A stretch of 12,047 nucleotides of DNA from Fidelibacterota bacterium. Its GTDB lineage: Bacteria > Fidelibacterota > Marinisomatia > Marinisomatales > S15-B10. The notes beneath the pieces are model-generated. The model saw only the letters and a program-made list of their open reading frames with translations. It was not told the origin of the DNA and ran no database searches. The stretch spans positions 1 through 12,047 of the forward strand of contig JBHIAI010000051.1 of assembly GCA_046861655.1 (NCBI GenBank), given 5' to 3'. The position numbers and the translations under genes were made by a program. Positions 1 to 11,065 of the stretch are shown piece after piece (the stretch's first letter is position 1; each line of letters starts with the position of its first letter).

Positions 1-52
1 CGCCGGGGCGGGATAACAGCCACCCGTCCCGACCCTTCGGGACTACGCCGGA
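1..52 (-). pseudogene. tRNA-Asn(GTT)-like remnant, copy 2, truncated by the window edge
   Basis: Identical to the first 52 nt of copy 1 (162->111); anticodon-position GTT at 17-15. Confidence 0.65.
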
Positions 53-97
53 ATTATCAAGAATCTGTTCCCAGGACGGCTACCTTCTGAACGAACA

Positions 98-162
98 CGA
101 ACCCCTATCCCGCCGGGGCGGGATAACAGCCACCCGTCCCGACCCTTCGGGACTACGCCGGA
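98..162 (-). pseudogene. tRNA-Asn(GTT)-like remnant, copy 1, with palindrome-substituted arms and no 3' acceptor strand
   Basis: Minus strand reads TCCGGCG-TA-GTCCCGAAGGGTCGGGAC-G-GGTGG-CT-GTT-A-TCCCGCCCCGGCGGGAT-AGGGG-TTCG. This follows tRNA register: 7-nt acceptor strand, U8 A9, D-arm-sized hairpin, 5-nt anticodon stem, CT+GTT+A, then GGTTCG. The expected 3' T-stem and CGCCGGA are absent. Confidence 0.7.
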
Positions 163-220: not shown

Positions 221-2065
221 CTACATCTCTTTTTCCGCGATCAAAACCTTTCCCTTGCTAAACAGGCTGCGCTGCAATTGTTCCCGGTTAATCATGACGA
301 CCCCGTCCTCGTCGTGGCTTTCACCGAAGACCGAGTGGATGGACTTCAATCCACCCAGCCATTTTCGTTTGTCGCACAGGTACACGAGATCACCCACTTC
401 CGCCGCCATGGCCTCCATATCGTTCTTTGACAGTCTCACCACATCCTCAGTCCCTTCTTCCACCCTCCAGTGAACCTCCACTTTCTTGCCTTCCCTGTCA
501 TTGGGTTTACCCCCCTTGAACAATTCCCGGGCCCGGCTGATATCAAAAACGGTCAGTCCTTTGATGTCTTTGTCTGGGTCGTGTCTTGAGAAAAGACTCA
601 CTGTCACCCCCACCAGAGCGCACACGAAGATATTGTAGAGTGCGCCGATGTAGATGAAGGGCTTGTCGGTCTGCATCTCAATGCCGTGGGAAAAAGGGAT
701 GATCAGCTGAGGAAAGACCTGTCCCAGTATCATGAGGGCTGCGCCTGCGGTGAAGGTTGCCACTACCGCTGTGGATGTAAACCGCCGCCAGAACACCCCC
801 AGAAAGACGGCCACCACCAGAGGAGGTGTGAAGGTGGAATGAAACCAGCCATGGGCTTCGTAGATCGTCCCGAACGAGTTGAAAACAGGGACCAGGGCGA
901 CACTCACGGCAGTGACGCCTACTGAAACCCACCGGGACACCTCCAGGAAATGGTGGTCCGAACGCTCCTTCTTGATCATGGGTTTGTAGATGTCGTTCAC
1001 GAATACGGCAGCCGAGGCATTCACCAGGGTATCGACGGTGGACATGAGGGCCGCACTCAAGGCGGCAATGATGAAACCGAAAACCCCGGGTTTTGCCACC
1101 AGGTTGGTGACTACCACAAACACATCGTTGGGATCCATCGCCGGATCGATCCGTCCCGGGAACACCTCCAGAACGGCCCGTCCGATCCAGCCCGCATTGG
1201 AGACCACGATGGCCGAGATCGGCAGGACGAGCAGTACGTTAAACGTAGCCGCCTTTCTCCCCTCGTTCACGCTCCGGGCGGCCATAAACCGCATGATCAA
1301 TCCCTGGTTCAAGAACAGAAATCCCACACTCCCTGCAATGCCATCCTGCCAGAAAATCCCCACAAAATTGAAATCGGGAGGCCGGTTGAAATTGGCCAGC
1401 GGCAGTTTGGCTTCAGTGGGAAGAGCATTCCAGAAAACGTCTATTCCACCCAGATACGTAAGCCCTAGGAAAAACAACAGTAGACCGGCAAATAACAGAA
1501 TAAATCCCTGGAGCAGATCGGTGAAAATCACAGACGTCTGTCCCCCGAAGTGCATGTAGACAGCGGTCAGGACGGCCACAACGATCACCGTTCCCATCAG
1601 GGGCAGTCCCAGGATCTTGTATAAAGCCGTAGCCAGAGTCAGGAATCCGATGGCGATGTAGCCGATCATGTACAGAAGAATCATGAGGGTGGCGAGTCTG
1701 CGGGCGGTGGGATTGAACCTGCGCTCGAAGTATTCCGGGATGGACCTAACCCGGGTATAGTAGATGATGGGCAGCCACCCGAACATGAAAAATGGCATGA
1801 AAAACCAATCATTCATGTAGGTCATGGTGGAGGAGAAACCGTACTGGAAAGCCTTTGAAGAATACTTTATGAAGCTGTGGGAGCCCACCCCTGTGGCCAC
1901 GATGGATATGGTGATGAGCCACCAGGCAAACCGCCGGCCCCCGAAGAAGAAGTCGGAGGTGGTTTTTGCATACCGGCCAAAATAGCTGCCGAATAGAAGG
2001 ATGATGACAAAATAGGTGACGATGATCACCTGGTCCAGACCTGTGCCCACGATCGATTCCGACAT
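221..2065 (-). CDS. Sodium:solute symporter (SSS/SLC5 family), 614 aa, with a soluble C-terminal extension
   Basis: SSS motifs DFFFGGR, SIPEYFERRF, Y..GGQTSVIFTDLLQ, QGLIMRFMAA and AALMSTVDT; many transmembrane segments. Start placed at ATG 2065 (MSESIV), 4 nt after the upstream stop. Confidence 0.93.
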   Translation of the reverse strand: MSESIVGTGLDQVIIVTYFVIILLFGSYFGRYAKTTSDFFFGGRRFAWWLITISIVATGVGSHSFIKYSSKAFQYGFSSTMTYMNDWFFMPFFMFGWLPIIYYTRVRSIPEYFERRFNPTARRLATLMILLYMIGYIAIGFLTLATALYKILGLPLMGTVIVVAVLTAVYMHFGGQTSVIFTDLLQGFILLFAGLLLFFLGLTYLGGIDVFWNALPTEAKLPLANFNRPPDFNFVGIFWQDGIAGSVGFLFLNQGLIMRFMAARSVNEGRKAATFNVLLVLPISAIVVSNAGWIGRAVLEVFPGRIDPAMDPNDVFVVVTNLVAKPGVFGFIIAALSAALMSTVDTLVNASAAVFVNDIYKPMIKKERSDHHFLEVSRWVSVGVTAVSVALVPVFNSFGTIYEAHGWFHSTFTPPLVVAVFLGVFWRRFTSTAVVATFTAGAALMILGQVFPQLIIPFSHGIEMQTDKPFIYIGALYNIFVCALVGVTVSLFSRHDPDKDIKGLTVFDISRARELFKGGKPNDREGKKVEVHWRVEEGTEDVVRLSKNDMEAMAAEVGDLVYLCDKRKWLGGLKSIHSVFGESHDEDGVVMINREQLQRSLFSKGKVLIAEKEM

Positions 2066-2069
2066 GGGA

Positions 2070-2279
2070 CTACCCGTTAAGGGCCCCCAGGATGACGGCG
2101 GCATGCATGAAAGCATACCACACGAAACCCACGAGCAGAATGACCAGCCACTTTCGATCTTTGCGCAGCTTCAGATCCAGGGAGTGGTGTTTGAGGATCA
2201 GGACCATGCCCACGACAAAGAACAAACCGCCCACTCCGTACAGATAGAGGTAGGGAAGCCAGGTTCGAAAGAAACCCAT
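2070..2279 (-). CDS. Small two-TM membrane protein (69 aa), candidate SSS partner subunit
   Basis: Two hydrophobic segments separated by the basic loop KHHSLDLKLRKDRK; fills the gap between the HIT and SSS genes with 2-nt and 4-nt spacers. Confidence 0.8.
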   Translation of the reverse strand: MGFFRTWLPYLYLYGVGGLFFVVGMVLILKHHSLDLKLRKDRKWLVILLVGFVWYAFMHAAVILGALNG

Positions 2280-8823: not shown

Positions 8824-9867
8824 ATGATTCATAGACTTGCGATCATCGGGTTTGGGACGGTGGGCCAGGGGCTCTGTGAAATCCTGAAGGACCGGCGATC
8901 CGGGCTAAAGAGCCGCTACGGTTTTGAGTACTCCGTTGTGGCCGTATCCGATCTCCAGAAGGGATCGGTATCCTGTGAAGACGGTCTGGATGAGGGACAA
9001 CTGCTACAGTTGGCGAAGTCTGGAATCCCCCTGGACCAGTACCCTCCCCGGGGCCATGGGTGTGTCACCGGTTGGGATTCAGTGAAAACCATCAGAGATA
9101 CCGATGCCACGGTGGTGTGTGAACTCACCCCCACAGACATCGAGACCGGGGAGCCGGCCATCTCTCACGTCCGGGAGGCCCTGGCATTGGGCAAGCACGT
9201 GGTCACCTCCAACAAAGGACCGCCGGCCCTGGCCTACCGGGAACTGGCTCGGCTCGCATCGCAGCAGGGGACTCAGTTCCTTATTGAAGGGTCTGTTATG
9301 GCGGGAACCCCTCTTATCAAGATGGCCCGGCACCATCTGGCCGGAGCCAACCTATCGAGCATCAAAGGAATCCTCAACGGAACCACCAACTTCATACTCA
9401 CTGAGATGGAACGGGGCATGTCCTATGAGTCCGCCCTTGTCCAGGCGCAGGAAATGGGGTATGCAGAGACCGATCCCACCGCCGATGTTGAAGGACTCGA
9501 TGCCCTGGCCAAGGTGGCCATCCTGGCCGGTGCCGTCCTGGATGAGGATCTGAAGCTGAATGCTATCCCTGTTCAGGGGATCACCCATCTCACCAGTAGG
9601 GATGTGGCAGCCGCGATATCACGGAAGAAACGGTGGAAACTTCTGGGTCAGGTGGTAAGGACGAGCCGCGGTCTGGAAGCCTCCGTCGGTCCGGAAATGG
9701 TGGACCTGTCCCACCCGCTGGCTGAGGTCAGCGGTCCCACCAACGCTGTGACGTTCTCCACGGATGTACTGGGTGATGTTACCATCAAGGGGCCGGGCGC
9801 CGGAAAGGAAGCCACCGGATTCGCGGTCTTATCGGACCTGTTGGAAATACACCGGCACACTGCGTGA
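8824..9867 (+). CDS. hom: Homoserine dehydrogenase, short form without ACT domain, 347 aa
   Basis: IIGFGTVGQG Rossmann motif, HVVTSNKGP, EGSVMAGTP, GILNGTTNFIL, GYAETDPTADVEGLD and GPGAGKEATG. AAGGAAGA precedes ATG 8824. Confidence 0.95.
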   Translation: MIHRLAIIGFGTVGQGLCEILKDRRSGLKSRYGFEYSVVAVSDLQKGSVSCEDGLDEGQLLQLAKSGIPLDQYPPRGHGCVTGWDSVKTIRDTDATVVCELTPTDIETGEPAISHVREALALGKHVVTSNKGPPALAYRELARLASQQGTQFLIEGSVMAGTPLIKMARHHLAGANLSSIKGILNGTTNFILTEMERGMSYESALVQAQEMGYAETDPTADVEGLDALAKVAILAGAVLDEDLKLNAIPVQGITHLTSRDVAAAISRKKRWKLLGQVVRTSRGLEASVGPEMVDLSHPLAEVSGPTNAVTFSTDVLGDVTIKGPGAGKEATGFAVLSDLLEIHRHTA

Positions 9868-9905
9868 TTCGGAATGTGTGATTCGTGATTCGTACTGCGT
9901 AACGT
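9864..9905 (+). repeat. Degenerate heptamer tandem repeat (consensus GTGATTC, six units)
   Basis: GTGATTC GGAATGT GTGATTC GTGATTC GTACTGC GTAACGT in exact 7-nt phase; the first unit contains the hom stop codon. Confidence 0.7.
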
Positions 9906-9922
9906 TATACATTGGCATGCTT

Positions 9923-11065
9923 CTACACTCGGTCCAGGGCCTGCTGAATATCCTCCAGAATGTCGTCCGGATCCTCGATACCCACCGAGAGTCTGACCAG
10001 GCCGTCCGTCAAGCCACGGGCGATCCTTTGGTCCCGGGGCACCTCGCCGTGGGTCATGGTTGCCGGATGGGTCACCATGGTTTCAACCGCCCCCAGACTT
10101 TCAGCCAGTGAGCACAGTTTCACCCCGTTCATGAAAATCTTTCCAGCTTCCAATCCCCCCTCAAGCTCAAATGAGATCATCCCTCCGAATCCTCCCATCT
10201 GTTCCACGGCCACCGCATGCTGGGCGTGGGACCTAAGGCCTGGATAGGTGACGGTTTTCACCTTGGGGTGACCTGCCAGGAATTCCGCCACCGCCTGGGC
10301 GTTGGCGGCGTGACGGATCATCCTGAGGGACAGGGTCTTGACCCCCAACAGAGTAAGCCAGCAGTCAAAGGGACCTGGAACGGCGCCTATGGTCTTCTGC
10401 ACAAACTTCATCTTTTCAAAGATATCCCTGCGGTTCGTGATGACTGCCCCCCCAATGAGCTGATTGTGCCCGCTCAAGTACTTGGTCGTGCTGTGCATGA
10501 CAATGTCGGCTCCAAACTCCAGCGGTCGAAGGAACACGGGGGTCGCGAAGGTGGAATCCACGCCGAACAGCAGGTCGTGATCCTGGGCGATGGTTCTCAT
10601 GGCCTTCAGGTCAGTCACTTTGAGCAGGGGATTGGTCGGTGTTTCCACCCAGAGCATCCTGGTGTTGGGGAGAATGGCTTCCACAACACTGTCAGGATGG
10701 GACGTGTCCACATAGGAGAACCGGAGATCGTAGTTGACCAGGATGTTGTTGAAGTGACGGGATACACCCCCGTATACGTCATCGGAGCAGACCACATGGT
10801 CCCCGGCTTTGAGCAGTTTCAGACATGCGTCCACGGCGGACATTCCGCTGGCAAAACAGATACCGTATTCGCCCCCTTCAATGGCGGCAAGATTGTGTTC
10901 CAGAACCTCCCGGGTGGGATTGGCCGACCGGCTGTAGTCAAATCCTTTGTCGTGCCCCACCTCCTCCAGGACATAGGTGGCCGTCTGGTAAAGAGGGGGA
11001 AGAATGGACCCTGTGGTGGGATCGGGTTTGATTCCCGCCCGCACCACCTTGGTATCGAATCTCAT
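9923..11065 (-). CDS. PLP-dependent transsulfuration enzyme, most likely cystathionine gamma-lyase (MetB/MccB family)
   Basis: YSRSANPT, FASGMSA, DVYGG, ETPTNP, DSTFATP, PLP-lysine motif HSTTKYLSGH, ESLGAVET and RLSVGIE; RBS AAGGAG. Gamma-lyase is inferred from adjacency to CBS. Confidence 0.92.
   Translation of the reverse strand: MRFDTKVVRAGIKPDPTTGSILPPLYQTATYVLEEVGHDKGFDYSRSANPTREVLEHNLAAIEGGEYGICFASGMSAVDACLKLLKAGDHVVCSDDVYGGVSRHFNNILVNYDLRFSYVDTSHPDSVVEAILPNTRMLWVETPTNPLLKVTDLKAMRTIAQDHDLLFGVDSTFATPVFLRPLEFGADIVMHSTTKYLSGHNQLIGGAVITNRRDIFEKMKFVQKTIGAVPGPFDCWLTLLGVKTLSLRMIRHAANAQAVAEFLAGHPKVKTVTYPGLRSHAQHAVAVEQMGGFGGMISFELEGGLEAGKIFMNGVKLCSLAESLGAVETMVTHPATMTHGEVPRDQRIARGLTDGLVRLSVGIEDPDDILEDIQQALDRV

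Follow-up and report, generated by a model that had tools for sequence, protein, structure and literature searches.

A dispersed 16-nt hairpin that replaces native mini stem-loops in tRNA-Asn copies, and its linkage to small GIY-YIG genes

Described hairpin repeats and small GIY-YIG proteins

The closest described system is Ssn/NTS, as presented in the main text of PMC11893778. The nuclease SsnA of Neisseria meningitidis (cd10448) needs Y6, Y17 and E64, binds a hairpin on single-stranded DNA, has no dsDNA or RNA activity and cuts upstream of the hairpin, at a distance that we estimate from the wording of that text as ~9 nt before the matching core. As at the loci reported here, a single-domain GIY-YIG protein of <100 aa is encoded next to short hairpin repeats, of which further copies are scattered over the genome. 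The catalytic positions are the same, with Y5, Y16 and E62 invariant in 40 of 40 of our proteins; the NTS core printed in PMC11893778 fits our pattern TCCCG-N6-CGGGA; and the ends of the copies that we describe below would agree with cutting on the upstream side of the hairpin. Profile similarity is 98.8%, at 28% identity.

Other features separate the two systems. The CGTC-type leader is absent here and 0 of 74 hairpin copies lie inside the SRM pattern. No SRM match was found within 400 bp of 30 GIY-YIG genes picked by Pfam score, although four Ssn-type genes among the 30 gave none either, so that the pattern may lack sensitivity in this order. Our tRNA-linked proteins lack the C-terminal extension of four NTS-adjacent Ssn-type proteins, and in a tree of 86 columns, which uses these four as proxies and does not contain SsnA itself, they are set off from them by a branch of 2.95 (support 100/99) and do not come out as members of cd10448. 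The genes studied here are anchored at tRNAs, which the main text of PMC11893778 does not mention, and here the hairpin replaces native stem-loops. The hairpin system works most like Ssn/NTS, yet it stands apart in clade and in SRM matches, and its mode of replacement is possibly new.

REP/BIME elements and REPtrons, in the portion of PMC3733652 consulted, are also short dispersed palindromes, mostly intergenic and sometimes within genes, and the REPtron shares with our loci the combination of an autonomous gene-bearing unit with gene-less arrays. Our repeat differs in having neither a GTAG nor a CGTC tag, in measuring 16 nt only, in its linkage to GIY-YIG rather than HUH genes and in replacing sequence rather than inserting. 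Rickettsia palindromic elements (portion of PMC1779305 consulted) likewise place palindromic repeats in protein-coding genes and show lineage-specific bursts, but they are insertions of 100–150 bp, whereas the repeat here has 16 nt, a net gain of ~6 nt and a candidate enzyme. Phage T4 SegB is encoded, as are our proteins, by a free-standing GIY-YIG gene in a tRNA region and is tied to tRNA sequence; it is a dsDNA homing enzyme acting between phages, for which the consulted portion of PMC2330249 describes no partial tRNA duplicates or hairpin repeat, whereas the genes here are chromosomal and encode the catalytic domain only. By sequence profile, the closest solved relatives are UPF0213 and Slx1-like GIY-YIG proteins (1zg2, 1ywl, Slx1). 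We know of no tRNA anchoring or hairpin repeat for proteins of this group. In our literature search, which took in few subscription papers and was confined to main texts, we found neither tRNA-anchored GIY-YIG arrays nor hairpin replacement described.

Truncated tRNA-Asn copies and the exchange of native segments

The window (the whole stretch of DNA analysed, 12,047 nt) is an entire contig, with position 1 at a contig end. It harbours a 110-bp tandem unit containing a truncated tRNA-Asn(GTT) copy with two palindromes (Table 1). P1 (TCCCGA-CCCT-TCGGGA) occurs at 137–152 and again at 27–42, and extends to a 7-bp stem at 136–153; P2 (TCCCGC-CGGG-GCGGGA) extends to an 8-bp stem at 106–125. These palindrome coordinates and stem lengths, given in the initial annotation, were all reproduced, and TCCCG-N6-CGGGA matches the window exactly three times. 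Read on the minus strand from 162 to 98, the sequence corresponds to tRNA-Asn(GTT), beginning at tRNA position 1 and reaching the T-loop. It consists of positions 1–10, P1 (152–137, following G10), the 5' stem and loop of the anticodon arm, P2 (123–108, following the anticodon loop), the 5' side of the T-stem and the start of the T-loop; the 3' half is absent. The outer pair of P1, 136/153, is the native G10–C25 pair. Bases 1–55 are identical to 111–165. Base 106, directly after P2 on the minus strand, is an A where the T-stem of the relatives' intact tRNA-Asn has a G.

Table 1. Features of the tandem unit and its host anchor (positions in the window)
Feature	Position	Strand	Basis
Truncated 5' tRNA-Asn(GTT) copy 1	98..162	-	Alignment with intact and pseudo copies of relatives
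Hairpin P1, 16 nt, replacing the native 14-nt D-arm interior	137..152	.	Native D-arm at run-contig loose ends 43 and 153; alignment
Hairpin P2, 16 nt, replacing a 10-nt ACC-N4-GG(T/C) segment 3' of the anticodon	108..123	.	Alignment with relatives
GTAG, native tRNA positions 7–10, not a REP tag	153..156	-	Alignment with relatives
Anticodon GTT, retained; anticodon stem destroyed by P2	125..127	-	Alignment
45-nt spacer of the 110-bp tandem unit, without ORF	53..97	-	Single occurrence in assembly
tRNA-Asn copy 2, cut by the contig end; P1 at 27–42, part of P2 at 1–13	1..52	-	55-nt identity; joint 110 to 1 in run X3
Sodium:solute symporter gene, conserved host anchor; orthologues followed by tRNA-Asn	221..2116	-	Comparison with relatives

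Neither ARAGORN nor Rfam made a tRNA or other RNA call in the window; with the 3' half missing and the cloverleaf incomplete, a functional tRNA-Asn, intact or rearranged, is excluded. ARAGORN also found no tRNA-Asn anywhere in the assembly, which is 93% complete. Folding of the whole region was unremarkable (z from -0.15 to -1.5, with one positive value). The 45-nt spacer has no homologue in the source genome or the retrieved loci, and carries a T>C variant at 81 in three of four sequencing runs. An exact 34-nt search of metagenome contigs gave 0 matches. We also considered an assembly artefact at the contig end, where the 55-nt overlap resembles a k-mer break. Run contigs, which come from four runs of one study and are possibly the source of the assembly, nevertheless hold both the unit and the 110-to-1 joint, and the array layout is also present in other families, which contradicts such an artefact.

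Comparison with relatives reveals the state before the exchange. Among 29 orthologous loci 3' of the symporter gene, classified by eye, 17 have a single intact tRNA-Asn free of palindromes, one is cut at a contig end and 11 have partial 5' copies upstream. All 11 loci with partial copies bear a palindrome-like insert, some imperfect and some of other motif families (by eye). In G040, from another family, both swaps are found at identical junctions with different inner bases. The congener G001 gave weak symporter matches only, and nothing in it matched the tRNA-Asn pattern. Contigs from the four runs show the native D-arm after the unit, and a depth-3 contig of run X1 has it at 153 instead of the P1 of the first copy. 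P1 thus stands at the D-arm position, with 16 nt for 14 native ones, and P2 lies 3' of the anticodon, with 16 nt for 10, the native 10-mer being inferred from relatives, as the reads give its first three bases only. These lengths indicate replacement rather than insertion. The initial annotation had suggested that replacement, not simple insertion, puts a small palindrome into existing stem-loops, and the orthologues, the contigs with a native D-arm and the fixed junctions all support this suggestion.

We extended the comparison by scanning GTDB for an anticodon loop followed by the motif, a query that returned 99 loci and overlaps the set of 29 relatives. By a rule on the 3' flank, 75 of the 99 are tRNA-like, with three more added by eye, and 57 of the 75 retain an intact tRNA-Asn. 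The locus titles name Chlorobiota, Ignavibacteriota, Calditrichota, KSB1, Neomarinimicrobiota/Fidelibacterota, Bacteroidota and three CPR genomes. The junction is common to several FCB phyla, the flanks match each lineage's own tRNA and the 99 loci show 66 inner-base forms. The inner pair is complementary in 138 of 138 tRNA-like matches, compared to 13 of 24 others (tandem copies being non-independent). A binding site for a dimeric protein, which had been offered as an alternative to replacement, is the less likely reading, as the inner pair shows the covariation of a base pair. An automatic raw count, made without a null, found a perfect stem of at least 6 bp in 30 of 45 partial tRNA copies. 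Other hairpin families occupy sites of their own in tRNA copies, including a TCCGCC-N4-GGCGGA type and longer D-loop inserts ending in CAGGC (loci L006, L011, L024, L028, L075 and L188).

Genome-wide spread and the target sites

The palindrome pair of the window consists of copies of a dispersed genome-wide repeat, confirmed as exceeding chance by the genome scan, which found enrichment in the source genome and in its relatives. TCCCG-N6-CGGGA has 74 copies in the source genome at spacer 6, against 3–23 at the other spacers from 0 to 15 (Poisson p 1.7e-30, with a mean of 13.4 taken from spacers 14–30). The five best hits of a de novo scan for palindromes with 5-mer arms all belong to this family, which is the top palindrome family of the genome. 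A stricter pattern gave 59 matches in the source genome and 1 for the reversed control; in 201 genomes of the phylum it gave 1776 and 95, respectively, with at least one match in 140 genomes. The inner pair is complementary in 59 of the 74 copies, where base margins predict 33. By our own simple gene calls, under which 88% of the genome is predicted coding, 42 of the 59 perfect copies are intergenic and 17 lie in predicted genes. Three variants account for 12, 11 and 7 of the 59 (30 together), P2 being the second commonest (11/59), and such dominance of a few variants per genome suggests copying from master copies. Sixteen streamlined f12 genomes that were searched have no motif, and no GIY-YIG or Y1 match either.

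Three observations concern the surroundings of single copies. By eye, the motif apparently sits in loops of CGTC-like REP hairpins at four places in the source genome (G000; C8:18348, C15:4399, C157:6609 and C186:7880). Two ORFs of 699 aa with equal scores and the same flanks (G000 C43:13113-15212 and C48:12348-14447) have the motif at the gene end and represent either a duplication or binning redundancy. In the single-contig genome G064 (C1:2679429-2682000), three 104-bp hairpin units plus a GIY-YIG gene are repeated about four times.

Functional RNAs and proteins also contain the hairpin. In the RNase P RNA of the source genome (270 bits) the motif occupies three helix tips. Across 30 genomes, inspected by eye, the peripheral helices of this RNA carry variants that differ between genomes, the congener included, with nesting in some of them; other genomes keep short native loops. 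Hairpins of other families are nested in RNase P helices at loci L138, L155 and L160. The variable arm of tRNA-Ser(CGA) has one variant in the source genome and another in G001. We compared eight of the 17 coding sites with orthologues, and in five of these the gain is exactly two residues (10 to 16 nt), one of the five genes being presumably uvrA, as judged from its sequence. The other three sites comprise a gain of three residues, a 23-residue insert that includes the motif and a C-terminal extension. At the uvrA site the 10-mer of the congener can pair with itself, which is not so at two others; the congener's genes are only ~76–87% identical. ARAGORN additionally reported, at G000 C172:1471-1563, a 93-nt tRNA without an assignable anticodon, which may be an overwritten tRNA.

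What the hairpin replaces was determined from alignments in which each decorated copy was set against the intact tRNA of its own locus. This yielded 24 distinct sites, compiled by hand with the commonest segment for each, keeping doubtful alignments and dropping two 1–2-nt entries as misalignments. The lost segment ends in at least two terminal Watson–Crick pairs at 20 of the 24 sites, and nine sites are whole cloverleaf arms. Among the 15 non-cloverleaf sites, 11 start and end with at least two Watson–Crick pairs, while 0.94 would be expected from random tRNA segments and 0 of 200,000 simulations reached this number. The process therefore reads small inverted repeats and not the tRNA fold. 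Many of the target inverted repeats are cryptic, with 2–4 bp. The Asn +4 site runs contrary to the rule, its outer base being unpaired in the present host tRNA in 16 of 66 locus entries.

The GIY-YIG linkage, competing explanations and a model

Small GIY-YIG genes accompany the decorated tRNAs. An ORF of ~85 aa scoring above the PF01541 cut-off is present in 45 of the 75 tRNA-like GTDB loci and, among loci of at least 2 kb, a small GIY-YIG ORF is found in 21 of 33 tRNA-like ones compared to 1 of 13 others. These counts are lower bounds, because the table-11 search missed the TGA-interrupted ORF of a Gracilibacteria tRNA-Asn locus (L114, ~1070-1290), which is GIY-YIG-like and likely recoded (by eye). 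Nine residues are invariant in 40 of 40 proteins, including the catalytic-type Y5, Y16, R26, H30 and E62. A clade of 46 rows (support 100/95) spans six phyla, with a tRNA-Asn within 900 bp in 36 rows and no tRNA called in 10; further GIY-YIG clades stand at Asp, Gly, Pro and Ala tRNAs, and seven Asn-linked rows fall outside the 46-row clade (86-column tree). None of five small GIY-YIG proteins tried has an NCBIfam family.

The assembly of the source genome does not contain the tRNA-Asn GIY-YIG gene, its GIY-YIG genes being a tRNA-Asp one and UvrC. In three runs, however, the downstream tRNA-Asn copy is preceded by codons that we read by hand as MKGDFDWKR-stop. These resemble the C-termini of the tRNA-Asn GIY-YIG clade in position and style, in 30-letter loose ends from one study that is possibly the source of the assembly. 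The array in the window is very probably a non-autonomous part of such a GIY-YIG cassette, dependent in trans on the gene of which the run contigs show the C-terminus beyond the intact tRNA. At another place in the source genome (L001; end of C181 and start of C189) a small GIY-YIG gene is followed by a tRNA-Asp copy in which a 20-nt family hairpin replaces the whole anticodon arm. The tRNA-Asp GIY-YIG gene has a run-contig depth of 2.3–3.1 against 6–7 in the flank, a weak hint that only part of the population carries it.

At loci picked by Pfam score, a tRNA adjoins 20 of 30 GIY-YIG genes and 0 of 30 RAYT genes. The family hairpin lies within 400 bp of 18 of 30 GIY-YIG and 3 of 30 RAYT loci (p 9e-5); for the strict 16-mer the counts are 9 of 30 and 3 of 30, which is not significant (p 0.10). 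Of the two gene types that the initial annotation named as candidates for co-occurrence with the motif, GIY-YIG was borne out, at both tRNA-like and Pfam-picked loci, and RAYT was not. At the level of whole genomes GIY-YIG and Y1 transposases tie, with a within-family rho of 0.35 each, in a comparison that used counts transferred by hand, non-independent kin and a profile made from motif-selected loci. Seven genomes with at least 10 hairpins have no GIY-YIG match. In family f23 small GIY-YIG genes are numerous (median 6) but TCCCG hairpins almost absent; the family may use another hairpin or nuclease clade.

An HUH tyrosine transposase (RAYT/TnpA-REP) that cuts and rejoins single-stranded DNA at hairpin bases could in principle write the motif, leaving the GIY-YIG cassettes as neutral sinks. 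A precise swap is easier to reconcile with covalent strand transfer than with a hydrolytic nuclease, the source genome has a RAYT above the NCBIfam cut-off, and Y1 transposases track the motif about as well as GIY-YIG proteins. We nonetheless consider this explanation unlikely. In addition to the scarcity of the motif near RAYT genes, the RAYT of the source genome is flanked by an unrelated repeat, and seven genomes with at least 10 hairpins have no PF01797 match (one of them, G003, has a weak NF047646 match). The GTAG tetranucleotide, read initially as a possible REP tag, precedes only 2 of the 59 perfect copies, both in the window, and alignment with relatives confirmed the other reading offered for it, native tRNA positions 7–10. 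A transposase of this kind would also leave unexplained why copy ends follow the hairpin. The repeat at the RAYT itself (L004; G000 C110, ~9400-10100) is a direct repeat of ~50 nt with internal hairpins, present on both sides of the gene and unrelated to the TCCCG motif.

The ends of the tRNA copies keep a narrow distance from the hairpin. Upstream tRNA-Asn copies end 8–15 nt past P2 in 33 of 34 cases (10 nt for the copy in the window), and downstream copies start 8–19 nt before P2 in 56 of 61. Across isotypes, where the outermost hairpin sits in the D-arm, anticodon arm or T-arm, the end moves with the hairpin and the median arm measures 10–12 nt with up to 52 nt available; the lower bound of arm length is partly set by the search pattern, and the printed rank correlation is partly built in. 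Both the upstream and the downstream layout place the end 5' of the hairpin on one strand. An enzyme of the SsnA type that recognises the hairpin and nicks the strand upstream of it would produce such tracking.

Homing of the SegB type offers a different account: the intact tRNA gene, as dsDNA, would be the substrate of the GIY-YIG enzyme, and the palindrome a patch that abolishes the cleavage site and so immunizes the spare copy. SegB, a GIY-YIG protein, does recognise a tRNA T-loop motif (portion of PMC2330249 consulted). Our nuclease clades group by tRNA isotype, and upstream Asn copies often end at the T-loop. Against this, the copy ends move with the hairpin and not with the T-loop, an intact, uncut tRNA stands beside the gene in 57 of 75 loci, immunity requires no conserved hairpin with co-varying pairs (138/138), and the copies in RNase P RNA and the presumed uvrA would go unexplained. 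Taken together, these points render it quite improbable.

We regard it as very unlikely that no dedicated enzyme is involved, whether the hairpins arose by local template switching or are host sites (for a dimeric protein, or as RNA stabilisers) kept by selection. Perfect stems and GC-rich tips would be tolerated or even favoured in functional RNAs, and most perfect copies are intergenic (42/59); but local switching cannot turn unrelated targets, such as the one in uvrA with its two added residues, into hairpins that agree in length (16 nt) and in their 5+5 outer bases. The dominance of a few variants per genome (12, 11 and 7 of 59) and the absence of the motif from the 16 f12 genomes searched, which likewise gave no GIY-YIG or Y1 match, also speak against this account. 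A decorated tRNA copy acting as a guide strand (RNA or ssDNA), whose hairpin holds the nuclease while arms of 8–17 nt anneal to the intact tRNA gene and target integration to it, would fit the 8–19-nt arms retained on the truncated side in nearly all copies, the match of the arms to each host's own tRNA and the cutting by SsnA of a site split over two oligos, but SsnA does not bind RNA (both in the main text of PMC11893778), swaps in genes and RNase P RNA have no such arms and a fixed nick distance explains arm retention equally well, so that we give it hardly any credence.

The loci examined here combine replacement at fixed junctions, inverted-repeat targets, spread into functional RNAs and, in frame, into genes, linkage to GIY-YIG genes and copy ends that track the hairpin. 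We postulate that the dispersed 16-nt hairpin, in standing in for native mini stem-loops, probably serves as the binding signal of the small GIY-YIG nuclease, with a predicted ssDNA nick ~8–17 nt 5' of it. First, the nuclease would bind the hairpin on single-stranded DNA and nick upstream; judged from the copy ends, such binding and nicking on either strand seems somewhat more plausible than not as the event that sets the ends of the units. Second, unit-length pieces would re-enter or expand through tRNA-gene homology, always leaving one intact tRNA, and the units in the window would be gene-less passengers. Third, and tentatively, the swap might arise if, during a polymerase or repair step, the hairpin fragment bound by the nuclease were used to span the base of the target mini-hairpin. 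Lastly, swaps would survive where they are neutral, that is in spare tRNA copies, peripheral RNA helices and in-frame loops. The passage from nick to precise swap is the least certain part of this model, since an upstream nick alone does not account for a base-to-base swap.

In its broadest form, to which we lend slightly less than even weight, this model would make the 16-nt hairpin a mobile element driven by a tRNA-anchored GIY-YIG protein of ~85 aa. Such an element would exchange itself base to base for any stem-loop, even a cryptic one of 2–3 bp, without target-site duplication, transposase or integrase, rewriting peripheral helices of RNase P RNA and tRNA and adding residues to proteins across FCB and CPR. 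If true, this would be an undescribed route by which very short selfish DNA spreads. It provides a very short repeat with a landing rule, the replacement of an inverted repeat, and with a candidate enzyme that has a predicted cut distance, and it is relevant to how REP-like repeats that have no transposase come to spread. The tRNA-linked clade could enlarge the set of site-specific ssDNA nucleases. The exchange may also explain short lineage-specific inserts in conserved proteins and tRNA genes that are often missing from assemblies. Finally, in these phyla the variable helices of RNase P RNA and tRNA would seem to have been overwritten by selfish DNA instead of evolving slowly, a point that matters for covariation and phylogeny work.
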